DNA of 64,000 bases from an uncultured Gammaproteobacteria bacterium (lineage in GTDB: Bacteria; Patescibacteriota; Microgenomatia; PFEM01; DATLAM01). The notes beneath the pieces are model-generated. The model was not told where the DNA came from, made no database searches, and worked only from the letters and a program-made list of their open reading frames with translations. Location: positions 71,248-135,247 of the forward strand of contig CAZMIZ010000001.1 of NCBI GenBank assembly GCA_964566925.1, given 5' to 3'. The translations under genes were made by a program, and so were the position numbers. Positions 1 to 16,300 of this stretch are shown one piece after another (position 1 is the stretch's first letter; each line of letters starts with the position of its first letter).

Positions 1-339
1 AACTTTAATTCTATCTCCAGGTTTAAAAACATCGCCTGCTTTGACCAGATCACCAACTTTTAATTGGGTCTCTTGGTCAAGCCGAACCTCTCTCAAAAAA
101 CGGGGAGCCATTTTTAGCTTGGCTCCCTTGATGTGTCCTTTAAGCGGTTTTCCAATCTTAGTAAGTTTCTTCTCGCCCCACCCAAGTTGAATTGCATCAT
201 AGCCGTCCTTGTCGAGAGTTTTAACCTGGACTACCGGACAAGGCCCGGCCACAACTCGGGTCACAGGAATATCCTTCCCGTCCTGGGTGTACTTTCGGGA
301 AATCCCTAATTTAGTACCAAGAATCACTTTTACCATCTT
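1..339 (-). CDS. rplC: Ribosomal protein L3, 5' portion; the gene continues past the left window edge
   Basis: Reverse translation from 339 gives MVKVILGTKLGISRKYTQDGKDIPVTRVVAGPCPVVQVKT…, an L3 N-terminus. It sits downstream of rpsJ in S10-operon order. Confidence 0.8.
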
Positions 340-435
340 TGCCACGAAAAAAAGTGCCGGAGGCACTCTTAGCTTCCTTAACCGCTAAGCTAAAATTATT
401 TCAATTAGGTGTTAGCCTCACCTCCATTGCCTATT

Positions 436-464
436 ATTATAGAAAAAATCAGCTAAAAATGCAA
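436..464 (-). promoter_or_regulatory. Sigma70-like promoter reading toward rplC: -35 TTGCAT, 17-nt spacer, -10 TATAAT
   Basis: Minus-strand read: TTGCAT (comp. 459-464), ttttagctgattttttc, TATAAT (comp. 436-441), about 95 nt upstream of the rplC ATG. The -35 lies inside the 18-bp repeat. Confidence 0.5.
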
Positions 465-468
465 ATTT
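451..468. repeat. Left copy of perfect 18-bp direct repeat agctaaaaatgcaaattt (island boundary)
   Basis: Identical 18-mer at 4658-4675. The two copies bracket the block of non-ribosomal genes between rplC and rpsJ. Confidence 0.75.
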
Positions 469-492
469 AGGAGAAATTGTGGATAACTAAAC

Positions 493-978
493 TTATGTTT
501 TGCTTCCTGCGTCGCTAACTCCCCATAAAGATTTTAATTCGTTGGCAAAAGGGGCAGATTCCTTAATCCTTCCACCTTCCCCTGGCTCTATCTGCTCAAG
601 GATCCAGTTGCGGGCATCCCTGACTGCTACTCCAGCCTGATCCAAACCTCTAGCTGAAAAGCCCCAATCAGTGGCTAAAAATGAAGCCAGGTCTCCTCCA
701 ACTCTCTTTTGTAAAGGAGAAAGAATTTTAGTCTCATATTCTTCTTTGGCCTTCTCTTCTATATCAAGCCCCTCACTTTTCTCTCCCCATTCCCTCTCAG
801 CTGTGGTTATCAACCAAGAAGTGGCTTGTTTAGGAGACCAGTAAGCTTCTGATAGTCTCCCTTTTTCCTTGAGACCATTAACAATTAACCGAACTAAAGC
901 CAAATTTATGTATGCCTTAATTGCTTTCTGCTCTTTCCCGGCTGTTTCGGCTAGTTCTTTTAAATTTCCCTCAGTCAT
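493..978 (-). CDS. Hypothetical soluble protein (161 aa), no recognised family
   Basis: Long ORF on the rplC strand inside the island. No TM segment and no motif I recognise. Confidence 0.45.
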   Translation of the reverse strand: MTEGNLKELAETAGKEQKAIKAYINLALVRLIVNGLKEKGRLSEAYWSPKQATSWLITTAEREWGEKSEGLDIEEKAKEEYETKILSPLQKRVGGDLASFLATDWGFSARGLDQAGVAVRDARNWILEQIEPGEGGRIKESAPFANELKSLWGVSDAGSKT

Positions 979-1178
979 TTTTATATCTGACTAAAATAAA
1001 TTATTAAGTTCTCTACTTTTAATTTTAATCAGGATTCTTCCTATAGTCAAATTCCTAAAAAGAATAGTCAACTCCCAACATGGTTGCTTGACAGATAACC
1101 TCTCAAGAGCTTACTCTAATAGAGAGGTGGTCTGCCCTAAGTGCCAAAAACCCAATTGAGGAGATTTAATAGACAAAA

Positions 1179-1694
1179 GTGATAAACAAGACTGAAGTTA
1201 TTTATGAAATTATAAATTTCGGCCAGGTTCCTGTGGGCCAAGTATTAAGAGAGGACTTCTTCACCCTTCTCATCGCCACTTCCCTCCTTCTTATCGGGAA
1301 TCTCGTTGGATCAGGGAAAAAAGGCATCAAAAAGTTCTTCTCTTCAAAAAAGTGGGCTCTATTTAATTTCCTCTTTTGTCTCAGCTGCATAATTATTTTA
1401 TTCGTGTCTATGGGCTATTTTAGTTATTTGAGAGATATTATTGAGGGTTATCCTACTAAGGAGGTGGAGGGTTGGGTGACTGGAAAAACAATTACAGTTT
1501 GTGGTTCTGTCAATTGCGGCGGAGACTGGGTCACAGTTAATGGTCAAAAAATTCGTATTAAAGATAAAGAGTTATTTGAAAAGATCAATTGTGGTGATAG
1601 GCTTTATGTAAAATATACTAAATACTTTAAAGCCCCAGTAAAAATTATTCGCCTTGGAAAATCTAATAATGAAATAGAAGGGGCTTGTCAATGA
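1179..1694 (+). CDS. Hypothetical membrane protein: two TM helices plus a Cys-containing C-terminal soluble domain
   Basis: The ORF is the first of seven tightly packed plus-strand genes. Hydrophobic stretches LLIATSLLLIGNLVG and FNFLFCLSCIIILFVSMGYF, with CGSVNCGGDW…CGD at the C-terminus. Confidence 0.45.
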   Translation: MINKTEVIYEIINFGQVPVGQVLREDFFTLLIATSLLLIGNLVGSGKKGIKKFFSSKKWALFNFLFCLSCIIILFVSMGYFSYLRDIIEGYPTKEVEGWVTGKTITVCGSVNCGGDWVTVNGQKIRIKDKELFEKINCGDRLYVKYTKYFKAPVKIIRLGKSNNEIEGACQ

Positions 1695-1695
1695 A

Positions 1696-2151
1696 ATGTC
1701 CAAGCTTAATTTAAAATCTCTTCTTCAGAAAAAGGGGGTGTGGGCAGGAATTATTCTTTTGTCTTTCATTTTGTTTGGGGGCGGAATTATTACTACTTTG
1801 CTGTTTCTCGTCGCCATCCTCTTTCTTTCTCCTTTCGTCAGGAAAATGTTTTTCAACCCCCTTAACCTATTAATCCTACCTTATGGAATTCTCCTAATAA
1901 GATCTCTTTACAGACAAAATTCAGTCTTGGTTTTTATGAATATTAGAAATGCTGTCTTTTCGATATCGATAGTTTTTCTATTAATAGAAGGAATAATTTT
2001 ATTGCTGATGAAAAGTAAAATAAAAGAAAACCATCTGTCTCACTCTGGGGTAATTTTTCTTGGTAGACTGATCTTTTTAACAATACTGGTAATTGTTTTC
2101 ACCAATTATTCTTGGGCAATGACAATTCTCTTGGCAAACCTTTGCAAATAA
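1696..2151 (+). CDS. Hypothetical polytopic membrane protein (151 aa)
   Basis: Starts 2 nt after the previous stop; about four hydrophobic helices. Confidence 0.45.
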   Translation: MSKLNLKSLLQKKGVWAGIILLSFILFGGGIITTLLFLVAILFLSPFVRKMFFNPLNLLILPYGILLIRSLYRQNSVLVFMNIRNAVFSISIVFLLIEGIILLLMKSKIKENHLSHSGVIFLGRLIFLTILVIVFTNYSWAMTILLANLCK

Positions 2152-2231
2152 TACGATAGAGTTTATACTTTGAGATAAAATAACCAAGGTCGGTGTGATA
2201 AAATTGTGGGAATAGTGGTAATCAGAAAAAA

Positions 2232-2663
2232 ATGAAGAACAAAACAAAAAAGGAAAGAATCCGGGCAATCATCCTCTTCTCCCTCATTATTATAATTCCC
2301 TCAATCGTTACAAAAAACATCATCGGATATCCCCATTCAACTTTTGAATGCCCAGAGGGATGGATTTGTGATCCTGTTTTAATAAGTCCTTCGGTCTACG
2401 CTCTTGCTTCTGCCCCTGCCTTGCTCAAACTTCAGGTTTTTTTCTCGTTCTTGGCAGGTTTTCTCCTCCTGAAACTTATAACAGAAGCTAAATTAAAAGA
2501 CGTGATTGGCACAATCATCCTGGGTGTTGTCTTCACTTTTATCACTGATCTTGTTGACTATCTTTTATACCTTACCGTCGCCCTTATAATTTGTATTCCC
2601 TTTGGCTTTATGGGAGGGTACCTCGGGAGGAAGATGAGAGGGGGTGAAAGCACAGTAAAATGA
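2232..2663 (+). CDS. Hypothetical membrane protein (143 aa)
   Basis: ORF with an N-terminal TM and two further hydrophobic helices; the Cys pair CPEGWIC sits in the first loop. Confidence 0.45.
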   Translation: MKNKTKKERIRAIILFSLIIIIPSIVTKNIIGYPHSTFECPEGWICDPVLISPSVYALASAPALLKLQVFFSFLAGFLLLKLITEAKLKDVIGTIILGVVFTFITDLVDYLLYLTVALIICIPFGFMGGYLGRKMRGGESTVK

Positions 2664-2866
2664 AATTTTTCAAAAAATTAGATACGGTTCGACGCCTCTA
2701 TCTATTCATCCTTATCGCGGGAATAATCGTAGGATTAGACGGATTTTTGCAGTTTTCTGGAGTTGGTTCTCTAGGAATTTTGAGGCTTTTGGCTAATCTG
2801 GCTTGGCCAATCATGTTAATTTTGGGATTTTTTGCTTTAGTTTTACAGAAAAGAAAGAAAGCCTAA
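2660..2866 (+). CDS. Small hypothetical membrane protein (68 aa)
   Basis: 4-nt start/stop overlap with the upstream gene; two predicted TM helices. Confidence 0.35.
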   Translation: MKFFKKLDTVRRLYLFILIAGIIVGLDGFLQFSGVGSLGILRLLANLAWPIMLILGFFALVLQKRKKA

Positions 2867-2893
2867 CGTGCTCAAGGAAGTTTAAAGACAATA

Positions 2894-3172
2894 TTGCAGG
2901 AAGATGATTTTGTTAAGGAAATGACAAATTTAAGAGATTATTTCCTTTTCTGGTTAATAGCTGTTTTCTTTCTTTTAGCGCCATTTATCTTGGCTTCCGC
3001 AATTCTTTGGATGAGAAGCAAGGTCTTCAAGAAAACCAATCCCAGCCAACAACAGATAATTAAACTGGGACTAACTATTCTCCTTGTCTATATTTTATAT
3101 GCTCTTTGGAAAGTTTTTGGAGGTTTTAAATTTTTGGATGGATTAAGATCAACCCCACCACATTGGCCTTAA
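2894..3172 (+). CDS. Small hypothetical membrane protein (92 aa)
   Basis: ORF with two hydrophobic helices. Confidence 0.35.
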   Translation: MQEDDFVKEMTNLRDYFLFWLIAVFFLLAPFILASAILWMRSKVFKKTNPSQQQIIKLGLTILLVYILYALWKVFGGFKFLDGLRSTPPHWP

Positions 3173-3244
3173 AAAGGCTTATAAAATAACCTTTTTAATC
3201 TGAGGGGGAACACGAAGAGAAAAATTATTATATAATAAAAGTCA

Positions 3245-3910
3245 ATGAAAATAGTCGATTATTTCCGCCAGGGATTCAAGCTCGCTAATCGTAACTTGAT
3301 CATTCTTATAATCAGCGTGTTTGGCCTGATACCCAGTCTTTTTAATTCCCTCTTAGAAAGATTTAGTCTTGGTGGAAATCCAATATTAATGTTGCTTGAA
3401 ATAATCATTTATGGGTTGTTAATAATTTTCACCATTGGCTATCTAGGAGTGCCCATCGCCTTTTTAAGAGACTCCCTCGTCAATGGGAAGTTTGAATGGG
3501 CAAATCTTCAAGCTTATTTTAGACGTTTCTCTTGGCCAATTTTTACTCTTTTAATCGCAGCCGCTCTTCTCTATTTAATTCTTAGTCTGCCTTTCCTTGC
3601 TCTAAATCTTCTCCCGCTCGGCAATTCCCTGTTAGCACCAATAATGATGTTTATGCCGATAATTATCGTTCTAGAGGAGGTAGGTCTAAAAGAAGCGCTT
3701 GGCAAGTTTCTAAAATTCATCAGTTTTTCCAAAAAAGATTTTCTTTTTTTCTATTTAATCCAGGCTGGATATTTCCTTTTGTTTTGGATCATCCAGCCAA
3801 GGTTTCCAGAAACTATTATTTTCCTTAGGATTATCAGCTTCTATATTGGCTTTATCTTTTTAGCAACCGGAATAGTTTTTTACAACGATTATTTAAAAGA
3901 GGGGGTATAA
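3245..3910 (+). CDS. Hypothetical polytopic membrane protein (221 aa, ~6 TM)
   Basis: Continuous ORF that is highly hydrophobic throughout. Confidence 0.45.
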   Translation: MKIVDYFRQGFKLANRNLIILIISVFGLIPSLFNSLLERFSLGGNPILMLLEIIIYGLLIIFTIGYLGVPIAFLRDSLVNGKFEWANLQAYFRRFSWPIFTLLIAAALLYLILSLPFLALNLLPLGNSLLAPIMMFMPIIIVLEEVGLKEALGKFLKFISFSKKDFLFFYLIQAGYFLLFWIIQPRFPETIIFLRIISFYIGFIFLATGIVFYNDYLKEGV

Positions 3911-3942
3911 TTAACCTGCTCAAGAAAATTTGGAAGATTAAA

Positions 3943-4593
3943 ATGATAAGTACGCCAAATCTCGACACTCAAAAGGTTGATCAAGAAAACGAAAAGAAGC
4001 CCAAAAAATGGGCCACTCTTGTCTTGTTAATAGCCCTAACTATTTCTTTGGGGATAAACGGTCTTTTTGCCTATCAAAACAGCCAGCTCCAAAAAGAAAA
4101 CAAAATATCAAGTTTAAATGTAGCGGAACTTGAGCAAAAAGTTAATGAATTGAAAGAAAAAAATGGCTTGTTAGGAATAGATATCGCCCGACCCTACAAT
4201 CCTATAAATAACCGCTTCTTCGGTTCTAGCCAAGAGCCGAAAACGACGGGCGATTACAACATCTGGGTAGGAGAAATAGAGATAGGAGATTTCTGTGCGG
4301 TAAAAATTTATGTAAAAAATAAAGGGGATGGAATATTAACAATCAATGCGAATGATTTTTATATGATTGCTGATGGCAATCAGGTAGAACAGGCTTCTAA
4401 CGCCACTGCACCTCGGTTTCCCAATGAAAAAGTTGAACTTTACCCAGGATATGAGATGCAAGGATACCTCACTTTCAAAATAGAGGCTTCACCAGAAATA
4501 CTTGAATTAAAATTCCAACCTGACGATTTAAACTTAGAATCAGTCATTCTCGAGGTATATGACTCGAGTAAAATCCCTGAGGCTGGAGAATAG
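3943..4593 (+). CDS. Membrane-anchored protein with a DUF4352-like extracytoplasmic beta-domain
   Basis: An N-terminal TM and a coiled-coil stretch are followed by …VKIYVKNKGDGILTINANDFYMIADGNQVEQ…, which resembles the DUF4352 pattern (recalled from memory). A short hairpin gtctct…agagac follows the stop (4597-4618). Confidence 0.45.
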   Translation: MISTPNLDTQKVDQENEKKPKKWATLVLLIALTISLGINGLFAYQNSQLQKENKISSLNVAELEQKVNELKEKNGLLGIDIARPYNPINNRFFGSSQEPKTTGDYNIWVGEIEIGDFCAVKIYVKNKGDGILTINANDFYMIADGNQVEQASNATAPRFPNEKVELYPGYEMQGYLTFKIEASPEILELKFQPDDLNLESVILEVYDSSKIPEAGE

Positions 4594-4657
4594 TCGTCTC
4601 TGAAGTATCCGAGAGACTTCTAGGTCAAATAATTTAGCCCTCCAAATAACTTCTAGG

Positions 4658-4675
4658 AGCTAAAAATGCAAATTT
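4658..4675. repeat. Right copy of the 18-bp direct repeat agctaaaaatgcaaattt
   Basis: Exact match to 451-468. Confidence 0.75.
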
Positions 4676-4719
4676 TTGATTCTTTGAAGGGTATCGCCTT
4701 AATATAGCCAAAAAGAGGT

Positions 4720-4750
4720 TTACATCTTAATCTCAATGTCCACACCGGCC
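4720..4750 (-). pseudogene. Relic of the rpsJ 3' end (encodes …AGVDIEIKM-stop), duplicated ~90 bp downstream of the intact rpsJ stop
   Basis: Minus strand ggccggtgtggacattgagattaagatgtaa versus genuine rpsJ end gccggcgttgacattgaaattaaaatgtag, about 27/32 identical with the same peptide. It overlaps the track ORF 4653..4859, which is therefore not a real gene. Confidence 0.55.
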
Positions 4751-4836
4751 CCAGTATAGTCTTCCCACTCGCCTTTTCAGTATTATCCATACACGGCTCG
4801 TGGCGCGACCTTACGGGGCAATCGGCGTTGATGATT

Positions 4837-5145
4837 CTACATTTTAATTTCAATGTCAACGCCGGCTGGAAGCTCGAGGTGCATCAGAGAGTCAATCGTC
4901 TTCTCAGTTGGCTCTAAGATATCAATTAAACGCTTATGGGTTAAAATTTGAAAGTGCTCTCGGGCGTTTTTATCTACATGAGGAGAAGTGGTGACGGCAA
5001 TCAACTTTCTTCTGGTAGGTAAGGGCACGGGACCAACTACTTTAGCTCCAGTTACTAAAGCTGTTTCTAAAATCTTTTCGCAACTCTCATCAATAATCCG
5101 ATGATCGTATGATTTTAAACGTACTCTTATTCTACCCTTCGGCAT
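4837..5145 (-). CDS. rpsJ: Ribosomal protein S10
   Basis: [21 protein letters not shown]…; 102 aa; immediately downstream of tuf. Confidence 0.9.
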
Positions 5146-5147
5146 CT

Positions 5148-6338
5148 TTATGCCTTAATTTTAGAGATCGCTCCCGCGCCGACGGTATGGCCCCCTTCTC
5201 GAATAGCAAAACGCAATCCCTCTTCGAGAGCCACCGGTTGAATAAGCTTGACGGCCATCTTGGCATTATCGCCAGGCATAACCATCTCCACTCCCTTAGG
5301 CAGAGTGACCTCGCCGGTTACGTCCGTGGTTTGGATATAAAACTGGGGTTTATATCCAGAGAAAAAGGGAGTGTGGCGCCCGCCTTCTTCCTTAGTCAAA
5401 ATATAAACCTCGGCCTCAAACTCCGTGTGAGCGGTGACCGAACCAGGCTTAGCTAAAACCTGGCCTCTCTCCACGTCGGTCTTTTCAACTCCGCGAAGGA
5501 GAACGCCAATATTATCACCGGCTTGACCCTCATCTAGGGTTTTGCGGAACATCTCCACCCCGGTAACGACTGTTTTTTTAGACTCCTTAAGGCCGACAAT
5601 CTCCACCGTGTCGTTAACTTTGACTTTACCCCGGGTAATCCGGCCGGTAACCACCGTCCCTCGGCCCTTGATTGAGAAAACATCCTCAACCGGCATCAGG
5701 AAAGGTTTATCAATATCCCTCTTAGGTGTGGGAACATATTCATCCACTTTATCCATTAGCTCTAAAATCGCCTTTTCCGCTTCCTTATCGCCCTCCAAAG
5801 CTTTGAGAGCGGAGCCGCGGATAACCGGGATTTTATCCCCTGGGAACTTATATTTGGTCAAAAGCTCCCTGATTTCCACCTCAACCAGGTCAATTAATTC
5901 CTTATCGGCAACCGCGTCAACTTTGTTGATAAAGACGACAATCGCCGGGACGTTCACCTGACGGGCTAAAAGAATGTGCTCGCGGGTTTGCGGCATTGGC
6001 CCGTCATCCGCTGCCACTACTAAGATTGCCCCATCCATTTGGGCCGCCCCGGTAATCATGTTTTTGATATAGTCCTTATGACCCGGACAGTCAATGTGGG
6101 CATAGTGGCGCTTCTTTGTTTCGTATTCAATATGAGTAATCGCAATCGTTAGCCCGCGCTCTTTTTCTTCTGGAGCGTTGTCGATCTCTTCGAATTTATA
6201 AAACTTCTCGCTGGTACCAGCGTCGGTAAGCACTTTGGTGATGGCGCTACTCAGCGTTGTTTTACCGTGATCAACATGGCCAATGGTGCCAATGTTAACG
6301 TGAGGTTTAGTTCTTTTAAAAACTTTTTTGTCTGCCAT
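5148..6338 (-). CDS. tuf: Elongation factor Tu
   Basis: [15 protein letters not shown] and NKVD motifs; 396 aa. Confidence 0.95.
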
Positions 6339-6397
6339 AATGTCCTCCTTTTGGCTGGCTTAAACTCTACCTATTTTAATCGAAAGTTGTCAAGATT

Positions 6398-8500
6398 TCA
6401 AGCCCTAGTCTTTTTGCCGGTCCGGCTAGCAATTTTTTCAGCAATATTGACCGGCACTTCTTCATAATGAGAGGGCTCCATATAAAAACTAGCTCGCCCC
6501 TGACTAATACTCCGGAGAGTGGTCGCATAACCAGGAATTTCGGCTAAAGGAACTAGGGCGGTAATTACCCTGACTTTACCCCGCATCTCGCTTCCTAAAA
6601 TTTGGGATCTTTTGGAAGAAAGGTCACCAATAATGTCCCCCATAAACTCTTCCGGGGTCGTCACCTCAATCTTCATAATTGGCTCCAAAAGCGTGGGGGT
6701 CGCCTTCTTAACCGCCTCTTGAAGGGCGGCACTCCCAGCAATTTTAAAAGCAATATCTGAAGAATCTACTTCGTGGAAAGTCCCATCATAAACCGCTACT
6801 TTCATGTCCACTAAAGGATAGCCGGCCAAAACTCCGTTCTCCATTGCTTCCTTGACTCCTTTTTCAATGGCCGGAATATATTCAGAGGGAATCGCCCCTC
6901 CTCTAATTTCAGAGACAAATTCAAAACCTTCTCCTCTAGGTTTGGGCTCAACCCTCAAGAAACAGTGGCCATACTGACCCCGGCCGCCAGACTGACGGAT
7001 ATATTTTCCCTCAGCCGTGGTCGTCCCTTTAATCGTCTCTTTATAAGCTACTTGAGGCTGGCCAGTGCTGGCCTGAACATTGAACTCCCGCTTCATCCGA
7101 TCAGCTAAAATCTCTAAATGAAGCTCGCCCATACCGGAGATAATTGTTTGACCGGTTTCCGGATTGGATTTGATTTTAAAGGTCGGGTCCTCTTCAGAAA
7201 GTTTATGAAGAGCCGCTCCTAATTTTTCTTGATCGGCTCGAGTCTTGGGTTCAATCGCTAAGGAAATCACCGGGTCGGGAAAGGTAATTGATTCAAGAAT
7301 GATAGGGCGATCTTTGTCGCAAAGGGTATCACCAGTAGTCGTTCCTTTTAAGCCAACAACGGCGACAATCTCGCCGGCAACCGCCTCTTTAATTTCTTCT
7401 CTTTTATCAGCATGCATCAGGAGTAATCGACCAGCTCTTTCCGGCTTTTTTCGGGTGGCATTATAGAGAGTCTCGCCTGATTTAAGAACACCTGAGTAAA
7501 CCCGGATATAAGTTAGTCGGCCCACATGAGGATCGGTTTGGATTTTAAACGCTAGAGAGGCAAAGGGTTCTTTAGGATCAGTCTTTCGCTCTTCCTCTTG
7601 GCCAGTTTTCGGATTAACACCCTTGATTGGTGGCAAATCAAGCGGATGGGGTAAATAGTCTACAACCGCATCAAGAATTAGATCGACAATGGCTGTCCGG
7701 TTGTCACCTGCCAAAATCGGGAAAAATTTACCAGTAATCGTCCCTGCCCGAATAGCTCTTTTGATTTCCTCCTCGGACAGCTCACCGTCGCCAAGATATT
7801 TCTCTAAGGTTTGATCATCAAATTCGGCCACTTTTTCAATCAACTCTTCTCGATATTTTTTGACATCTTTTTCCATCTCTTTAGGAATTGGCGCTTCTTT
7901 GAGTTTTTTTCCTTCCTTATCGCTGTAAACATAGGCTTTACGCGTAACTAAATCCACGGTTCCTTTCAGATCGTATTCATTCCCGATTGGAAGTTGGATA
8001 GGAACAGCGTTTGGGCTCAGGCGTTCCTGAACCGATTTAAGACTACCAAAAAAGTCACCGCCAATAAGGTTCAGCTTATTAAAACTACAAATTCGAGGCA
8101 CATGGTAACGATCGGCTTGATGCCAAACCGTTTCTGATTGAGCCTCAACACCAGTCCTGCCATCAAAAACCATCACCGCACCATCAAGAACGCGCAATGA
8201 TCGCTCGACTTCCGCCGTGAAATCAATATGACCTGGTGTGTCAATGATATTAATCCGATGCTTCTTCCAAAAAGCAGTAATGGCTGCCGAAACAATCGTA
8301 ATCCCCCGCTCTCTTTCCTGCTCCATCCAGTCAGTTACCGTTGTTCCCTCATCCACGGTGCCGATTTTGTAGGTTTTTCCGGTTTCAAAAAGCATCCGCT
8401 CGGTGGTGGTTGTTTTCCCGGCATCAATATGGGCAATAATGCCGATGTTGCGGACTTTCTCAATCGGAACTTCTCGTTCAGTTTTAGTTTTTTCTGCCAT
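6398..8500 (-). CDS. fusA: Elongation factor G
   Basis: [12 protein letters not shown] and DTPGHIDF motifs; 700 aa. Confidence 0.95.
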
Positions 8501-8600
8501 ATTTTTATTCTACCAATTTTAGACAAAACAAAAAACCGCCTCTGTCAAGAAGCAGCTTGCTTCAGGAACAATTTTACCAAAACCTCCTCGACAATTCAAA

Positions 8601-9080
8601 CTACCACCTAAAGTGGGCAAAAGCTTTGTTCGCTTCGGCCATCCGCTGAGTATCTTCTTTTTTCTTGATCGCTCCGCCTGTGTTCTGGGAGGCATCCAAA
8701 AGTTCCGCCGCCAGTTTTTCTGCAAAGGTGCGGTATTCCTTGTTTGACCTGGCTTTGGCGGCAAAGATCAACCAGCGAATTGCTAAAGATTCCCGACGAT
8801 CCCCTTTAACTGGCATAGGGACTTGATAAGAGGCCCCTCCAACCCGCCGAGGCCGAACTTCCATGCCTGGCTTAATATTCTCCACTGCCTGACGAAAGAC
8901 TTCTAGGGGCTCTTTGTTTGTCTTCTCTTTAATCAGCTCAAAAGATTGATAAACCTGTTTTTGGGCAACCTTTTTCTTGCCTCGCTGCATCACCCGATTA
9001 ATCAAGCGGGCAACCAACTGATCTTGATAAACTGGATCAGGTAATAAAATTCTTTTTTTAACTCTGCCTGCTCTGGGCAT
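8601..9080 (-). CDS. rpsG: Ribosomal protein S7
   Basis: S7-like N-terminus [31 protein letters not shown]…, adjacent to rpsL. Confidence 0.9.
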
Positions 9081-9590
9081 TTATTTTTTCTCCTCAGATT
9101 CTTTCTTGGGCTCTTTTTCGGCTTCTGTTTCTGTTTTTGTCTCTTTTCCCTCAGTTACCACTCCAGCTGCTGGAGCAGCGACGCCGCCCTTCTTGGTCCC
9201 ATATTTAGAGCGGGAACTCTTTCTCCCGCCCACACCAGTAGTATCGTAGCGTCCCCGAACAATCGTATATTTAATTCCTGGTAAATCCTTAACTCTTCCC
9301 CCGCGAACAAGAACAATTGCGTGTTCCGCTAATTCGTGGCCTTCGCCGGGAATATAAGCGGTTACTTCCTGCTTGTTTGAAAGCCTTACCCTGGCTACTT
9401 TTCGCAGGGCTGAATTAGGCTTTTTAGGAGGAATTGTTTTAACTACCGTGACCACACCCCGTTTTAAGGGATTAATCGTTTTCATCATCCGTCGCGTCCG
9501 ACTATTAAAACTCCGGCGTAACGCCGCCACCTTAACTCTTTTTTTCGGCCTCTTTCGGCCTTTTCTGACTAATTGAGAAATCCTTGGCAT
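9081..9590 (-). CDS. rpsL: Ribosomal protein S12 with a ~40-aa Lys/Glu/Thr-rich C-terminal extension
   Basis: S12 core …[10 protein letters not shown]…[12 protein letters not shown]…, then tail [35 protein letters not shown]. Confidence 0.9.
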
Positions 9591-9656
9591 ATCCGTTTGA
9601 TTTTATCAAAATTAAGCCTATTCCACAAGAAACAAAGTTCTCGCGAAGCGAGGTTT

Positions 9657-12600
9657 TTACTCTTCAATCCTGGCTCTTTCTGGGGAAACAGGAATTAAGC
9701 GACCAATAATAACGTTTTCTTTTAAGCCTAGCAACCGGTCTTCTTTCCCTGCCGTCGCCGCATCAGTTAGAATATTAGTTGTCTCTTGGAATGAAGCAGC
9801 CGAAAGCCATGATTCAGTATAAAGAGAGGCTCTGGTAATCCCTAAAATCACAATCTGAGCGCTGGCTGGCTCTCCCCCCTCAGCTAAAACCCGCGCATTT
9901 TCATCCTCAAAATGGATTTTATCAACCAACTCTCCGGGCAACAAAGAGGTGTCTCCTGTTGTCTCAATCTTCACTTTATCGCTCATCTTTCGAACAATTA
10001 CCTCAAAATGCTTATCGTTTATCGGAATTCCCTGAGACTCGTAAACCCGCTGGATTTCTTCAATTAAATATTCTTGGGCGGCCCGAAGACCTCTGATTTC
10101 CAGAACCTCTTTAATGTCCAGAGCCCCTGAAGCTAGTTGAGCCCCAGCCTCAATCAACTGACCTTCTTTGATCCGAAGGGTGCTGACCGCAGGGATAAGG
10201 TATTCTCTCTCTTCAGCTGGCTTAATACCCACACTCCTAAGGCGAATTTTATAGCCTTCGTCTGTCTCGACTACCTTCGCTTTTCCGGCAATTTCGGCTA
10301 AAGGAGAAAGGACTTTAGGCGTTCGCGCTTCAAAAAGTTCTTCTACTCGAGGTAGTCCTTGGGTCACATCAGAAACAACGATGCCGCCAAAATGCCTGAC
10401 TCGCATTGTTAATTGAGTTCCTGGCTCGCCAATGGATTGGGCGGCAATAATCCCTACTGGTGTCCCGACTTCAACCATTCCTTTAGTCGAAAAGTCCCAA
10501 CCATAACAGGTAGCGCACATGCCATAATGGGCCTCACAAGTCAAAGGAGAACGAATGACCACCCGATCCACCCCTTTCTTTTCCAAGAGGCCAATATTTT
10601 CCCCAGTAATCATTTCACCCTTCTTTAAGAGAACCTTTTTCGTCTTTTTATCAATCACCTCTTTGGCGAGAATTCTGCCTAAAATCCGGTTTAAGAATGA
10701 CTTCTTTCTTTGGCCGGACCGACTAATTTCCACTCCCTCTTTTGTTTGGCAATCTTCTTGGCGAACAATAACGTCATGGGCAACATCAACCAAACGACGA
10801 GTGAGATAACCGGCATCAGCAGTTTTAATGGCTGAATCGGTCAAACCTTTTCTTGAACCTCTAGTACTGGTCACATACTCAAAGATAGAAAGTCCTTCGC
10901 GGAAATTTGATTTTGTCGGCAGCTCTACGATTTTCCCTAAAGGATCAACCACTAAGCCACGCATTGCCGCCAATTGTTTCACCTGATCTCGGGAAGCCCT
11001 GGTCCCTCCGGAATCAATGATCACCCGAACACTATTCTCTGGCGAGAAATTCTCCCAGGTGAGATCGGCGATTTCTTCGGTGGTTTCCATCCAAATGTCT
11101 TGAGTCAGCCGTCGACGTTCCTGATCGGTAATCAAACCCCGAATAAAATTTTTCTCTACTTGGGCCACCTTTTCATTAGCGGTTTCAATAATTTTCCCTT
11201 TTTCTGGAATCACCTCATTATCCCATAAACCCACCGAGACTCCGGAGGAGGTGGCCGCCCAAAAACCCAAATCTTTAAGATCGTCTATTAGTTTTACTAT
11301 CTCCTCTTTTTCACAAACCTGGAGAGCGCGGGTAATCAAAGCCTTGATTGTCCCCTGACGGACACCATCATTTACAAAGCGTAGTGATTGAGGCAATATC
11401 TCGTTAAAAAGAAGTCGCCCAACGGTCGTCTCCACTATTTTTTCCTCGAGACGAACTTTGATCCTCTGACGAAGCTTTATTTTTTTCTCTTGGAAGGCTA
11501 AGATTGCCTCATGTTGATGGGTAAAAATCGTCGGGTGTGGTTTCAGCCGAGAATCAGTTGAGGTTAAATAGTAACATCCCAAAGCCATCTCTTTGTTGGG
11601 GATAGTAATTGGAGAACCGTCTGCTGGCTTCAGAAGGTTGTTTTCGGGAGTCATTAATTCTTTTGACTCTTCACGAGCTTTTTTCCCGAGGGGGATATGA
11701 ACAGCCATTTGATCGCCGTCAAAATCAGCGTTGTAACCGGCACAAACACATGGATGAATCCTGATTGCGTTACCTTCAATTAAGATGGGATAAAAGGCTT
11801 GAATCCCCAGTTTATGAAGGGTGGGCGCTCGATTGAGTAAAACTGGATGCTCTCGGGTAATTTTTTCTAAGATATCGAAAACCTCAGGGGGGCGATGTTC
11901 AAGAGCGTACTTGGCGCTTTTAACGTTAGGGGCAATCCCTGAAAGGATTAATTCCCGAAGAACAAAGGGCTTAAACATCTCTAAGGCCATCTCTTTAGGT
12001 AACCCACATTGATTAAGTTTTAGTTCAGGACCGACAATGATCACTGACCGGCCAGAGTAATCAACTCTCTTTCCCAACAGATTTTGTCTAAATCGGCCCT
12101 GCTTCCCTCTTAACATGTCTGATAAAGAGCGTAAAGGTTGGGTGCGACGACGAAAGCGCTTCGTTGGCCGGCGAGAAATATCAATTAGACTATCAACCGC
12201 TTCTTGAAGCATTCTTTTTTCATTCCGCAAAATAATCTCAGGGGCACCAAGCTCTACCAAGTGCTTAAGTCGATTATTACGATTAATCACTCGCCGATAA
12301 AGGTCGTTCAGATCGCTCGTAGCAAACCTTCCTCCTGAAAGTTGAACCATCGGGCGTAAATCTGGGGGAATAACCGGGAGAATTCGCAAAATCATCCAAG
12401 AGGGGTTAACTTCTGATTTTTTCAGTTCCTCAACTAGACGAAGACGTTTGGTGACCTTGATCCGCTTTGCCCCTCGCGCCTGACGAGCTTCCTTCCTCAA
12501 GTCAGTAATTAAATCCTGAAGTTTGATCTTTTTAATAACTTCCAGGAGTCCATCTGCCCCCATCCTTACCTTGAAGAAATTAGTCACCTTATACTCGCCC

Positions 12601-13355
12601 AGTTTAAGATATTCATCTTCAGTGAGTAAGCTCAGCTCTCGGAGGCTTCTAACCTTTTCGCCAAGATTCCGGTAAATTTCCTCTATTTGCTCTTGTTCAA
12701 GAAGATGCTCATCTCGGAGAGCTTGAATTTTTTGTTTAATTTTCAATTTCGTTTCGGCGACAACCAAGCTTTGCCGCTCTTTATTTTTGATCTTTTTCGC
12801 CACGGCCTTTTCTTCCTTCGCTCCTTCTTTTTTAATTTTTCTGATCTCCTTGTCAAAATCTTGGCGAAGTTTTTTCTTCTTTTTTGCCAATTCGTCTTCC
12901 AATAGGGCTAAGGCTTTCTTTTTTTTCTTTAGATCAATTTCGCTAATCAAATATTGAGCAAAATAAGTCACCGCCTCCAAGTCTCGGGAAGACATATTTA
13001 AAAGAAGCGAAAGTTTAGAAGGAGCACCTTTAAAAAACCAAATATGGACTACAGGAGAAGCGAGATTAATATGCCCCATTCGGTCGCGCCTCACCCGCGA
13101 TTGGGTTACCTCCACACCACATTTATCACAAACAATTCCTCGATAACGCACCCGTTTATATTTTCCACAATAACACTCCCAATCTTTAGTGGGACCGAAA
13201 ATTCTTTCACAAAAGAGGCCATCTTTTTCTGACTTTAAAGTTCGATAATTAATTGTTTCTGGCTTAGTCACTTCTCCATGAGACCAAGATTTGATCTCTT
13301 GCGGTGAAGCAAGTTTTATTTTGAGACCAGCAAAATCAACTACTTCTCTTTTCAT
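9657..13355 (-). CDS. rpoC: RNA polymerase beta' subunit
   Basis: Zinc-binding CYCGKYKRV…CDKCGV and NADFDGD motifs. Contains a lineage-specific Lys/Glu-rich insertion (~residues 140-240). Confidence 0.95.
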   Translation of the reverse strand: MKREVVDFAGLKIKLASPQEIKSWSHGEVTKPETINYRTLKSEKDGLFCERIFGPTKDWECYCGKYKRVRYRGIVCDKCGVEVTQSRVRRDRMGHINLASPVVHIWFFKGAPSKLSLLLNMSSRDLEAVTYFAQYLISEIDLKKKKKALALLEDELAKKKKKLRQDFDKEIRKIKKEGAKEEKAVAKKIKNKERQSLVVAETKLKIKQKIQALRDEHLLEQEQIEEIYRNLGEKVRSLRELSLLTEDEYLKLGEYKVTNFFKVRMGADGLLEVIKKIKLQDLITDLRKEARQARGAKRIKVTKRLRLVEELKKSEVNPSWMILRILPVIPPDLRPMVQLSGGRFATSDLNDLYRRVINRNNRLKHLVELGAPEIILRNEKRMLQEAVDSLIDISRRPTKRFRRRTQPLRSLSDMLRGKQGRFRQNLLGKRVDYSGRSVIIVGPELKLNQCGLPKEMALEMFKPFVLRELILSGIAPNVKSAKYALEHRPPEVFDILEKITREHPVLLNRAPTLHKLGIQAFYPILIEGNAIRIHPCVCAGYNADFDGDQMAVHIPLGKKAREESKELMTPENNLLKPADGSPITIPNKEMALGCYYLTSTDSRLKPHPTIFTHQHEAILAFQEKKIKLRQRIKVRLEEKIVETTVGRLLFNEILPQSLRFVNDGVRQGTIKALITRALQVCEKEEIVKLIDDLKDLGFWAATSSGVSVGLWDNEVIPEKGKIIETANEKVAQVEKNFIRGLITDQERRRLTQDIWMETTEEIADLTWENFSPENSVRVIIDSGGTRASRDQVKQLAAMRGLVVDPLGKIVELPTKSNFREGLSIFEYVTSTRGSRKGLTDSAIKTADAGYLTRRLVDVAHDVIVRQEDCQTKEGVEISRSGQRKKSFLNRILGRILAKEVIDKKTKKVLLKKGEMITGENIGLLEKKGVDRVVIRSPLTCEAHYGMCATCYGWDFSTKGMVEVGTPVGIIAAQSIGEPGTQLTMRVRHFGGIVVSDVTQGLPRVEELFEARTPKVLSPLAEIAGKAKVVETDEGYKIRLRSVGIKPAEEREYLIPAVSTLRIKEGQLIEAGAQLASGALDIKEVLEIRGLRAAQEYLIEEIQRVYESQGIPINDKHFEVIVRKMSDKVKIETTGDTSLLPGELVDKIHFEDENARVLAEGGEPASAQIVILGITRASLYTESWLSAASFQETTNILTDAATAGKEDRLLGLKENVIIGRLIPVSPERARIEE

Positions 13356-16300
13356 TTTTTAACCTCCGTCGTCCCCCCTCCGGCGACTACTTCTGCGCCA
13401 GCGGCTTGGGAAAGCTCCTTAGCCTCTTTCTCTACTTTTTCTTCTCCTTCTTCTATTTCTGCTTTCTTTTCACTAACAACGTCGGTAGGAATCACATTTA
13501 AGCCTAGGCTGTTCAATTCTTTAACTAAAACTTTAAACGATTCGGGAACCGTCGCCTCAGGAATATCTGTCCCTTTAACGATAGCTTCAAAAGTTTTGGC
13601 TCGACCGACAACATCATCAGATTTAATGGTCAACATCTCTTGGAGAGTCCGCGCCGCCCGATGGCCTTCTAAGGCCCAAACTTCCATCTCACCTAAGCGC
13701 TGGCCTCCCATTTGGGCTTTTCCTCCTAAAGGTTGCTGGGTCACCAAAGAATATGGCCCGGTTGAGCGCGCGTGAGTCTTATCTTCCACCATATGAATCA
13801 ATTTCAAAATATAAGCAATCCCAACGGCACTTTTTTCCTCAAATTTGTCTCCACTTCGACCGTCAAAGAGCCTCACTTTTCCATCCACGGGTAAACCAGC
13901 TTTTTTGAGTTCTTGACTAATCCTTCTCTCAGAAAGCTTTTCGAAAACAGGGATAGCGACTTTATGGCCGAGTTTCTGCATGGCCCAGCCAAGATGGGCT
14001 TCGAGAAGCTGGCCTAGATTCATCCGTGCCAAAACCGAAAGGGGAGAAATAATAATATCGACTGGTGTCCCATCTGGAAGATAGGGCATGTCAGCCACCG
14101 GGACAATCTCAGAAATAACTCCTTTATTCCCATGACGACCGGCTAATTTGTCTCCAACCGACACTTTTCTGATCTGAGCAACAGAAACCTTGATTTTTTT
14201 GATCGTTCCTGGCTCAAGCTCATCTTTCTCATCTCGATCAAGAATGGAAACATCCACTACCGTTCCTTTTTCCCCGTGGGGCATCCGCAACGAGGTATCC
14301 CGAACCTCCCTTGCCTTTTCTCCAAAGATGGCTCTTAAGAGCCTTTCTTCAGCTGTTAATTCTGTTTCTCCTTTAGGGGCAATCTTGCCAACCAAAATGT
14401 CATTTGGTCCCACTTCGCTCCCGACAACCACAATTCCGTCTTCGGCCAAATTGGCTAAGTCGGTTTCGCTTACGTTGGGAATGTCTCGGGTCAACTCTTC
14501 AGGACCCAATTTCGTTTCGACTAGTGGAGTCTCATATTCTTCAATATGAATCGAGGTTAAGATGTCTTCTTTCACTAGTCGATCGGAAATAATAACCGCA
14601 TCTTCATAGCCTAATCCGTCTAAAGAACAATAAGCAATAATTAGATTTTGGCCTAAACCCAATTCCCCTTTTTCACAAGAAGGTCCATCGATAATTAAAT
14701 CGCCTTTTTTTACTTGATCGCCGATTTCCACTAAGGGTCGCTGAGAATAACAGGTGCTTTGGGCCGAACGGGAAAATTTGACCACTTTGTAAATCTCTTG
14801 ATTCCCTCCAATTCTGATATCCTCGGTGTTTTGCAAAGCCTTTTCCTGCCCAACTTCTTTCATTGATTTTGGATTTAGCTTAACCACTACTTTCTCGGCA
14901 TCAACCCAAATCACTTTCCCTGAATGGCGTGCCCGAACCACTCGCTTCATCGCCTCAGCCACCACCCTCTCCATCCCTGTACCCACAACAGGAGATTGGG
15001 GCTTAACAACCGGAATCGCTTGACACTGCATATGAGTACCCATGAGAGCCCGGTTAGCTTCGTCATGGGCTAAAAAGGGAATTAAAGAGGCAGAAGTACC
15101 AACTACCTGGCGAGGGGTAAGATCAATTAATTCTACCTTCTCTACTGGCGCTTCCAAAAACTCTCCCTGGAAACGAACTGGCACCCAAGCATCGGTAATA
15201 AAACTCCTCCCATCAACATTAACGCCTGCATGAGTAACATAACGTTCCTGTTCTTCATCGGCAGGTAAATAAACAATCTCATCGCTCACCTTCATTCGTA
15301 TTTTTCCGTTTTTCCCTTTTTGTTTTTTTACTTTCCTATAAGGAGTTTCTAAAAAACCATATTCGTTCACCCGAGCATAAAGAGCCATATAAGTCACCAA
15401 ACCGATATTGGGCCCTTCAGGAGAACGAACAGGGCAGATCCGCCCGTATTGAGAGGCGTTTATGTCTCTAATAGAAAAGGAGGCGCGCTCACGGCTGATC
15501 CCGCCTGGCCCCATCACTGAAACCCGGCGCAAATTATCAATCTCAGAAAGAGGATTGGTCTGATCTAAAATGGTCGATAACTGATTGCTCCGAAAAAAAC
15601 TGTTAATTGAAGCAATGATCGGTCGGGCATTGACTAATTGGGTCGGTGTCGCTTTTTCTTCGGTACTCACTAAGCTCATTTTCTCCCGAATCGATCGTTC
15701 GAGACGGAGCAGTCCGATTCGCAAAGCCGTCTCGGCAACTAGTTCGCCAACTCGCCGAATTCGGCGGTTAGCTAAATGGTCAATATCATCAACCCTCCCC
15801 TGCCCACCTTGAAGATTAATAAGATATTTGATCGTTGCCAAGACATCTTCTTTGGTTAAAACCCAACTTTTGGACTCATTAGGAATTTTAAGCCCTAACC
15901 TTTTATTGATCTTAAACCGGCCGGTTTTCCCTAAATTATAGCGGCGATGATGGAAAAACATATTCGCCAAAAGCTCTTGAGCATTCTCTAAAACGGCTGG
16001 TTCTCCAGGGCGCATTTTCTGGTAAATTTCGACCACTGCCTCTTCGGACGTCTTAGTAGGATCTTTTTCCAGGGTAGCCAATAAGAATTTATTTTTTCCT
16101 TTTGCTGCTTTCTCTGCAAAAGCAGTAAAAATATCTTCATCTTGAGAATAACCAAAGGCACGCAGAAGAACGGTGAAAGGAAATTTTCGCCGCCGGTCAA
16201 TTCTGACACTAATAACATCATTTCTATTCACGAAAAATTCAAGCCAAGATCCTCGTAAGGGGCGGATCTCGGCACTATAAAGCATCCTTCCGGAAACCCG

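Follow-up and report, generated by a model that had tools for sequence, protein, structure and literature searches.

Integration hotspots, in which islets of genes sit between core genes, have reportedly been exemplified in work by Oliveira, Touchon and Rocha. Some integrative elements insert at the 3′ end of a tRNA, tmRNA or protein gene and carry a replacement 3′ end in attP, and homology-facilitated illegitimate recombination, or Campbell-type integration, occurs during natural transformation. Here we analyse a 64,000-nucleotide stretch of DNA (the window; GenBank assembly GCA_964566925.1, contig CAZMIZ010000001.1, positions 71,248 to 135,247) in which rpsJ, encoding S10, and rplC, encoding L3, a pair whose adjacency ranks among the best-conserved gene orders in bacteria, are separated by 4.5 kb containing eight open reading frames (ORFs). 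We conclude, with a probability of roughly 0.7, that this DNA is a strain-specific composite islet, lodged in a recurrent insertion slot between the rpsJ stop codon and the -35 element of an internal rplC promoter. Tested in turn as a transposon, prophage, known defence system or self-mobile integrative element, the islet fails each time. It belongs instead to a known kind, that of islets which vary between strains and occupy integration hotspots between core genes. As in known hotspots, one slot receives unrelated accessory genes in different strains, close relatives are empty, and some occupants carry mobility genes. Unlike them, this slot lies inside the almost universally contiguous str-S10 cluster, its insertion point is fixed to a few tens of nucleotides, and several of its inserts have duplicated promoter or gene-end sequence on either side. 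What is new here is the precise slot, the duplications of promoter and gene ends with synonymous-only differences, the rplC leader and a hairpin element of about 90 nt. A literature search found no earlier description of insertions between rpsJ and rplC.

One of the eight genes, i1, lies on the minus strand, which is the ribosomal strand, and the other seven lie on the plus strand (Table 1). These placements, made in an earlier note on this DNA that was drawn from its letters, proved correct: i1 encodes no transmembrane (TM) segment, hydropathy gives TM-like segments in all seven plus-strand ORFs, and the last of these encodes a DUF4352 protein. The note also described a perfect 18-bp direct repeat around the block, and the 18-mer, AGCTAAAAATGCAAATTT, is indeed exact at both ends. 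The copy adjoining rplC (R1) and the copy adjoining rpsJ (R2) are the only ones in the window, with no third found on either strand at up to 3 mismatches, and shuffled sequence gave 0 matches at up to 2 mismatches. What the note had missed is that the repeat is the -35 part of the rplC promoter, along with a displaced rpsJ end and the hairpin element described below. On the ribosomal strand R1 runs on as GATTTTTTC-TATAAT. Since R1 thus still completes TTGCAT-17-TATAAT, rplC keeps a complete promoter. R2 is followed by CCTAGAAGTTATTTGG, with no convincing -10. Because the two copies agree at their last four or five positions, which vary among relatives (AGCT versus GGCC, AGGC or GGTT), and because their identity stops sharply on both sides, R1 and R2 are best read as two copies of one molecule's sequence, a putative target duplication or att core, and not as two independently conserved promoters. 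Just inside the islet beside R2 are two copies of ACTTCTAGG (4615-4623 and 4649-4657), 34 nt apart, which could be recombinase-binding repeats or a chance match.

The comparison with relatives that the note had set as a test bears out an insertion: rpsJ and rplC are adjacent there, and most spacers hold a single 18-mer region. The window's S10 falls into a 90%-identity cluster of 32 sequences; the contigs encoding several of its members were looked up, and Joint Genome Institute (JGI) metagenomes were scanned with S10. The rpsJ-rplC spacing is 111-296 nt in L085/L086, L087-L090, L091-L096, L176, L177 and L180. In S10, L085/L086 are 99% identical to the window (one residue differs), L087-L090 96% and L091-L095 92%; L085/L086 also share 93% identity in L3 and 93-96% in the tuf-rpsJ DNA. 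In L085-L094 and L176 the spacer contains one copy of AAATTTGCATTTT plus a few variable bases, with 2-3 mismatches to the 18-mer, before TATAAT and the leader; the spacers of L096, L177 and L180 hold no close match to the 18-mer. A scan of genome contigs with the L3 N-terminus found no close relative, with a best identity of 52%.

An assembly or binning chimera, joined through the short repeat, has to be weighed, given that the DNA comes from a metagenome-assembled genome and that the taxonomic label of a related contig is clearly wrong. However, an independent Logan contig is 100% identical over 2507-15145 (12.6 kb), a span that takes in rpsJ, the rpsJ-side junction with R2 and half of the islet, and 18 bp is shorter than assembler k-mers. 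These two facts make a chimera very unlikely. A homologue of i1 also lies between rpsJ and rplC in a different sample, and both flanks run on into the expected native spacer, promoter and leader, so that we give this explanation next to no weight. A transposon with a target-site duplication was likewise rejected: there is no transposase, the ends are not inverted repeats, and an 18-bp repeat is too long. Such duplications are of fixed length, typically 2-14 bp, whereas the repeats at inserts in this junction measure 18, 19, 29, 45 and about 115 nt.

The genes around the islet help to explain why the slot exists. The earlier note took the islet to be nested in an essential operon, and relatives contradict this. 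In them rpsJ is coupled to tuf, and a promoter and leader of its own precede rplC, even where the junction is empty. Comparison across the lineage shows rpsJ as the predicted final gene of the tuf unit, and rplC as the gene that opens a separate predicted unit with its own conserved promoter and terminator-containing leader. The islet is located between these two transcription units, directly upstream of the rplC -35. With rpsJ coupled to tuf, and rplC served by its own promoter and leader, DNA can be inserted between the two without breaking an operon.

The adjacency of rpsJ and rplC is also less sacrosanct than the note had assumed. We examined 87 non-redundant loci with S10 64-100% identical to that of the window, 81 of which were informative. 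Spacing between rpsJ and rplC was at most 25 nt, the classical arrangement, at 17 loci and 26-300 nt at 44; at about 19 it exceeded 300 nt, or ran to at least 1 kb without rplC in sight (one member of this widest group, L165, is a detection failure). Thus the junction is a lineage-wide hotspot in which about a quarter of relatives carry cargo, a proportion that is rough because sampling of the contigs was biased. Different loci hold unrelated cargo, the listed carriers being L082, L097, L098/L109, L114, L115, L117, L119, L129, L138 and L154. For example, L082 (S10 89% identical) has 5.1 kb with genes for a zinc-ribbon protein, a PNPOx protein, a nucleoside phosphorylase and a phosphoenolpyruvate-utilising enzyme, and L097 (90%) has 5.7 kb or more, in which a large serine recombinase (Recombinase + Zn_ribbon_recom) accompanies HD-domain, cupin-like and glyoxalase-like genes. 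L129 carries a Replic_Relax gene and L115 a membrane-anchored SNase, and L098, L109 and L102 have opposite-strand single-pass membrane proteins, one of those in L098 having a CARDB domain. The cargo of L098 and of L109 occupies precisely the interval from the rpsJ stop to the -35, with no duplication. Inserts in L117, L119 and L097 are flanked by repeats of junction sequence (Table 1). The rplC -35 (TTGAGA or TTGAAA) falls within the last rpsJ codons in L117, L119 and L177, and therefore a viable insertion there must duplicate that segment. The L097 serine recombinase gene (5832-7076, minus strand) lies beyond that locus's repeats and is cut by the contig end.

Given that rplC has an independent promoter and leader, and that about a quarter of relatives have insertions, the surprise of a broken adjacency in the window is much reduced. 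Across this uncultivated lineage the rpsJ-rplC order is freely breakable, because the internal promoter and leader make rplC transcriptionally independent. The junction thus offers a sequence-level example in which regulatory architecture decides where foreign DNA is tolerated. It is also a precisely defined natural landing pad, which may be mined for strain-variable envelope or phage-defence genes. As a side observation, the rpsG-fusA junction is empty in the window, with a 100-nt spacer, and occupied in L087 (4503-5615, Acetyltransf_6), L180 (4311-6092, a 325-aa ORF and an Exo_endo_phos gene) and L177 (6095-6442, a 115-aa ORF).

These comparisons bear on the alternative that the block is ancestral to the sub-lineage and that the relatives' empty sites are secondary deletions through the 18-bp repeats. 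Recombination between the repeats would recreate exactly the empty-site sequence of the relatives, the G+C (GC) content of the islet genes at third codon positions (GC3) is host-like, and the i1 homologue occupies the same junction in a second lineage. However, every branch sampled includes empty sites, over S10 identities from 99% to 64%, none of the approximately 90 related loci encodes a homologue of any of the eight islet proteins, and the other occupied junctions hold unrelated genes. The duplication of an 18-bp promoter segment would still require an insertion-type event. We consider an ancestral block improbable.

The rpsJ side of the islet carries a second scar. The working rpsJ end reads GAA ATT AAA ATG TAG, and downstream of it stands a displaced rpsJ 3′ end, GACATTGAGATTAAGATGTAA, which differs from the working end at five positions, all synonymous, and matches the real rpsJ end of L086 exactly over 21 nt. 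Between the two ends is the hairpin element, in which 7 of the 21 predicted pairs are compensatory across three copies. A covariance model of the element matched L114, L148, L143 and L139. In L114 it follows rpsG, again with a displaced, synonymously recoded gene end, here of 31 nt; in L148 and L139 it lies in the rpsJ-rplC spacer, and in L143 it is inverted in the fusA-tuf spacer. Occurrence in both orientations indicates that the element behaves like mobile DNA and not like a fixed cis-regulator. Its 5′ part is complementary to the recoded gene end, both in the window (CGGCGUUGA/UCAACGCCG) and in L114 (CAAAGCUUUC/GAAAGCUUUG). Rfam returned chance-level matches only, and an integron attC site was rejected, as the core motifs do not fit. 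This element of about 90 nt, tied to duplicated and synonymously recoded gene ends, is undescribed.

Taken over all duplicated gene ends, the differences are synonymous in 15 of 15 cases (5 in the window, 7 in L114 and 3 in L117). A dead gene copy would gather changes at all codon positions. The synonymous-only pattern therefore indicates that both copies were working gene ends and that neither is simply a decaying copy. Of each pair, one end must have come from the recipient, and the other would have been carried in with the insert. We infer that the 117-nt insertion at the rpsJ end was a separate event, which probably brought the hairpin element together with a replacement rpsJ 3′ end. The order of working gene end, insert and displaced old end, with synonymous-only differences (in the window, L117, L119 and L114), is that of elements that target 3′ ends. 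Unlike those elements, the inserts here have no accompanying integrase, can be as short as 88 nt, and have repeats of 18 to about 115 nt at variable positions.

A plausible course of events is as follows. Recombination within an 18-bp segment in the upstream half of the promoter would have let in foreign DNA and left that segment duplicated at both ends, with R1 keeping the rplC promoter complete and R2 as a relic. The cargo would comprise a seven-gene operon with its own promoter region, transcribed towards rpsJ, and i1, an independent resident of the slot that is co-oriented with rplC; the 117-nt event at the rpsJ end would have added the hairpin element and the replacement 3′ end. Two mechanisms could produce such scars. 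In the first, a recombinase acting in trans, or since lost, would have used the 18-mer as an att-like core, or an attachment site mimicking the target. In the second, a circle or linear fragment from the same junction of a related genome would have recombined through short homology. The varying length and position of the repeats, and the scarcity of recombinases, favour the second option as a general theme. As in transformation-type recombination, the repeats are the most conserved local sequences, there is no recombinase, and the gene ends resemble alleles of two related genomes. Unlike in recombination between donor and recipient, however, the window's 18-mers are identical even at positions that vary among relatives, which a target duplication or att core fits better. 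For the window itself, a perfect and sharply bounded 18-mer suits an att core or target duplication at least as well.

Another explanation is that the islet is a decayed integrative element of a classical type (prophage, conjugative or mobilisable) whose tyrosine integrase has since been deleted, with the 18-mer as its attL/attR core. A perfect, sharply bounded repeat flanks the whole block and is single-copy at the empty site, mobility genes occur at the junction in relatives (the serine recombinase of L097 and Replic_Relax of L129), and the two ACTTCTAGG repeats stand beside R2 as arm-type binding sites might. However, the islet yielded no remnant of an integrase and no phage or plasmid gene, and searches of phage, plasmid and viral-contig collections brought up no DNA or protein similarity. 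The sole recombinase seen at the junction is of the serine type, which leaves no long repeats, and i1 is also met at the junction on its own, the other seven genes being absent. We regard a decayed element as possible, if somewhat unlikely.

Table 1. Positions of features at the rpsJ-rplC junction of the window and of comparable features in related loci
Feature	Locus	Positions	Strand	Remarks
rplC (L3), first 112 codons	window	1-336	minus	cut by the window's left edge; translation 93% identical to L3 of L085/L086
rplC leader	window	337-435	minus	5′ box AATGGAGGTGA 418-427, variable hairpins, terminator-like hairpin GTGCCTCCGGCAC 354-366, T7 run 347-353
rplC promoter	window	436-464	minus	-35 TTGCAT 459-464, 17-nt spacer, -10 TATAAT 436-441; near-consensus; conserved in L085-L087, L091, L096, L176
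Repeat copy R1	window	451-468		adjoins rplC; upstream part, including -35, of the working promoter
Spacer past i1 stop codon	window	469-492	minus	resembles native rpsJ-to-promoter spacer of L086 (CAATTTCTCCT vs CAATCTCTCCT)
i1	window	493-978	minus	161-aa soluble helical orphan, no TM segment; co-oriented with ribosomal genes
Promoter-like site upstream of i1	window	1022-1050	minus	TTGACT-17-TAAAAT; consensus match only
Seven packed membrane-protein genes	window	1179-1694, 1696-2151, 2232-2663, 2660-2866, 2894-3172, 3245-3910, 3943-4593	plus	convergent with rpsJ
Repeat copy R2	window	4658-4675		adjoins rpsJ; relic -35 segment
Spacer, displaced rpsJ end to R2	window	4676-4719	minus	44 nt; final ~20 nt resemble L087 spacer
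Displaced rpsJ 3′ end (AGVDIEIKM and stop)	window	4720-4749	minus	29 nt at 4721-4749, 86% identical to 4838-4866; 117 nt downstream of working end
Hairpin element	window	4750-4836	minus	~88 nt, core GCCGTGTATGGATAATACTGAAAAGGCG / GCCGTGTAYGRAYARTACTGAAAAGGCG; predicted fold -35.2 kcal/mol, z = -3.05
rpsJ (S10)	window	4837-5145	minus	start 2 nt past tuf
tuf	window	5148-6338	minus	
fusA	window	6398-8500	minus	
rpsG	window	8601-9080	minus	
Hairpin element copy	window	4745-4839	minus	
Hairpin element copy	L114	2491-2581		
Hairpin element copy	L148	10513-10607		
Hairpin element copy	L139	1281-1413		
Hairpin element copy	L143	3049-3143	opposite	
Duplicated rpsJ end	L117	277-316 and 1293-1334		45 nt of rpsJ end around a 1-kb single-gene insert
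Duplicated rpsJ end	L119	10291-10309 and 10629-10647		19-nt rpsJ 3′ end around 338 nt
Direct repeats	L097	1414-1530 and 5115-5230		~115 nt, each with terminator and promoter, around 3.7 kb

With regard to the cargo, ORFs of at least 60 aa cover 94% of the plus strand over 1179-4593. Shuffled sequence gives 9 ± 7% (at most 32%) and the opposite strand 11%, and therefore the seven plus-strand ORFs are very likely real genes. The region upstream of them contains a perfect TTGACA (1089-1094) with a weak -10. The only domain recognised among the eight proteins by Pfam, PHROGs, PADLOC and NCBIfam is the DUF4352 (PF11611) of the last gene product (2.2e-9; 38.1 bits against a gathering score of 25.9; residues 115-194), a 216-aa protein with a short charged N-terminus, one TM-like segment (24-42), a coiled-coil linker and the C-terminal domain. 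As the earlier note had remarked, there is no integrase or transposase, and all four collections were negative for either in the eight proteins. PADLOC gave 0 families at E ≤ 0.1, and no islet protein matched a toxin or immunity family. The sole phage-family match is a weak one of the DUF4352 protein to PHROG 806, of function not known (4.8e-6). Searching 50,697 phage records with the islet by blastn gave no match, as did a plasmid collection; scans of viral contigs with the 3245-3910 and 3943-4593 products found no relatives, and a PDB sequence search with two cargo proteins found nothing. Five of the seven membrane proteins are present in a protein collection, each as a singleton at 90% identity. 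The homology search detected no homologue of the 221-aa six-TM protein, and the DUF4352 protein has a single homologue, P0024 (50% identity, same domain), in a non-ribosomal context beside another polytopic membrane protein.

For i1, the sole homologue among 5.8 billion clustered proteins is P0023 (76% identity), and a HMMER profile search of 1.8 billion representatives returned the same one. A 3.5-kb contig of a different sample (SRR26421370) encodes P0023. Its gene order is tuf, rpsJ, i1 homologue, rplC, rplD, on a single strand, with gaps of 80 nt before the homologue and 160 nt after it, and the seven membrane genes are absent from that junction. This makes i1 an independent resident of the slot, presumably older or separately mobile. 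The modelled structure of i1 is helical, with a mean predicted local distance difference test score of 61 (low confidence), and a Foldseek search of the PDB with this model gave nothing with E < 0.7. Three smaller candidates were rejected. A 9-bp repeat, AGAATAGTC (1061-1069 and 4587-4595), considered as the boundary of the seven-gene block, has E = 0.18 and misfits the gene spacing of the relative that has i1 alone. As for a third remnant of the rpsJ end, the sequence at 1011-1030 is of low complexity and not significant, and a derivation of the i1 3′ end from the rpsJ end is weak (14/30 matches).

The composition of the islet gives a divided answer to the note's proposed GC and codon check. 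Total GC (0.37) is the lowest of the window (mean 0.433 ± 0.015). The deficit is confined to codon positions 1 and 2, because the proteins are hydrophobic and lysine-rich, and GC3 resembles that of the host genes. Composition thus says little about the origin of the islet and shows no foreign source.

It had also been proposed that the block is one unit, and a coherent, perhaps undescribed, membrane system. The block is not one unit: i1 stands alone at the junction of one relative, and a separate 117-nt event affected the rpsJ end. Nor was support found for a coherent system, as the cargo proteins are orphans with no conserved co-occurrence. A stronger form of the idea would have all eight genes form one membrane system (toxin-immunity, holin or phage exclusion) co-regulated with ribosome synthesis. 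The tight packing of the seven genes, with overlaps or short spacers, is in its favour, as are the PHROG 806 match and the TM segment plus DUF4352 of the last gene product, a layout like that of Mpr, which confers phage resistance. However, the seven genes point in the opposite direction to the ribosomal genes and possess an upstream region of their own, and the searches for PADLOC, toxin or immunity families gave no match. Searches with i1 and two of the membrane proteins, i7 and i8, found no homologue co-occurring with another islet gene, the sole homologue of i8 is in a different, non-ribosomal context, and i1 travels separately. A single eight-gene system is in our view doubtful.

Mpr of Mycobacterium smegmatis, the one precedent for the phage-exclusion idea, is a membrane-bound nuclease. 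The resistance to phage D29 that it confers is non-abortive, and in vivo Mpr depends on its DUF4352 domain (PMC9262609, PMC12596739). It consists of a TM segment (33-50), a linker and DUF4352 at 83-211 (PMC9262609). The 3943-4593 product shares this layout of N-terminal TM segment, linker and C-terminal DUF4352, the comparison being one of layout. This is also the commonest DUF4352 architecture, and most such proteins are without known function. The Mpr-like layout therefore makes a role at the envelope, or in interaction with phage, a best guess by analogy. For the membrane operon as a whole, variable cell-envelope or phage-interaction functions seem most likely, as a weak inference.

Several points weigh against the composite-islet reading or against parts of it. 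The seven-gene block was not found in any relative, and the i1-only junction is known from gene order alone. The two flanks conflict on the native spacer, with the R1 side like L086, the closest relative, and the R2 side like L087. The islet genes have a host-like GC3 of 0.32-0.43, overlapping the 0.36-0.53 of host genes. The islet lacks any recombinase, transposase or terminal inverted repeat, and the mechanism is therefore read from scars alone. For the cargo, the proposed function draws on one Pfam domain and hydropathy.

One extension of the composite-islet reading would make the rpsJ-rplC junction, together with slots such as rpsG-fusA, a dedicated site of recombinase-free cassette exchange, with the rpsJ 3′ end and the rplC -35 as portable homology anchors. 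Cassettes and the hairpin element would hop from one related genome to another at these same junctions, with DNA uptake as one possible route, and every hop would regenerate a working gene end and promoter. This model is speculative, and we think it unlikely. If it were true, an exchange site with Mpr-like DUF4352 cargo would mean strain-level diversification of envelope or phage-defence genes inside the ribosomal gene cluster.

The rplC leader is a further finding that does not depend on the islet, as promoter and leader are kept both in empty-site relatives and in relatives with other cargo. In E. coli, the S10 operon leader mediates attenuation by L4 (context in PMC3616713). Like that leader, the one in the window is promoter-proximal and has an intrinsic-terminator-like hairpin directly before the first gene of the L3-L4-L23-L2 block. 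Unlike it, the window's leader precedes rplC and not rpsJ and has no Rfam match, and neither its invariant GGAGG box nor its mini-ORF is known from the E. coli leader. The AATGGAGGTGA box lies about 8 nt past the -10, and the rplC start codon is ten bases beyond the T run. At least 14 relatives have both the box and the GTGCCTCCGGCAC/T-run hairpin, with structural support for the terminator helix only; the leader was noted in the window, L082, L085-L087, L091, L096, L098, L099, L103, L109, L110, L120, L176 and L177. In every relative the box opens a mini-ORF of 6-8 codons ("MEV.."), and CCUCC in the terminator is the complement of the box's GGAGG. This combination suggests that the leader may act as an antiterminator or a ribosome-sensing switch. 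Rfam gave no gathering-score match for the leader in the window, L082, L087 or L091, and chance-level matches only at E ≤ 10 over 320-480. The leader, with its invariant GGAGG box and terminator, is undescribed, and together with the hairpin element it may outlast the islet itself in interest.

Some minor observations concern the identity of the lineage. In L091 (18094-19160), L177 (17558-18563) and L180 (18569-19624), the S5 gene is followed directly by that for L15, without an L30 gene, which is compatible with, and at most hints at, an affiliation with the Candidate Phyla Radiation. The same holds for the sample names of many related contigs, which derive from a groundwater study (Hainich). 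The L082 contig (JGI Ga0307380_10000013, 385 kb; protein P0006 / HUW21328.1) is labelled "Candidatus Bathyarchaeia archaeon" at NCBI despite its bacterial tuf, rpsJ, rplC and full S10/spc operon, and this label is probably a binning or labelling error.

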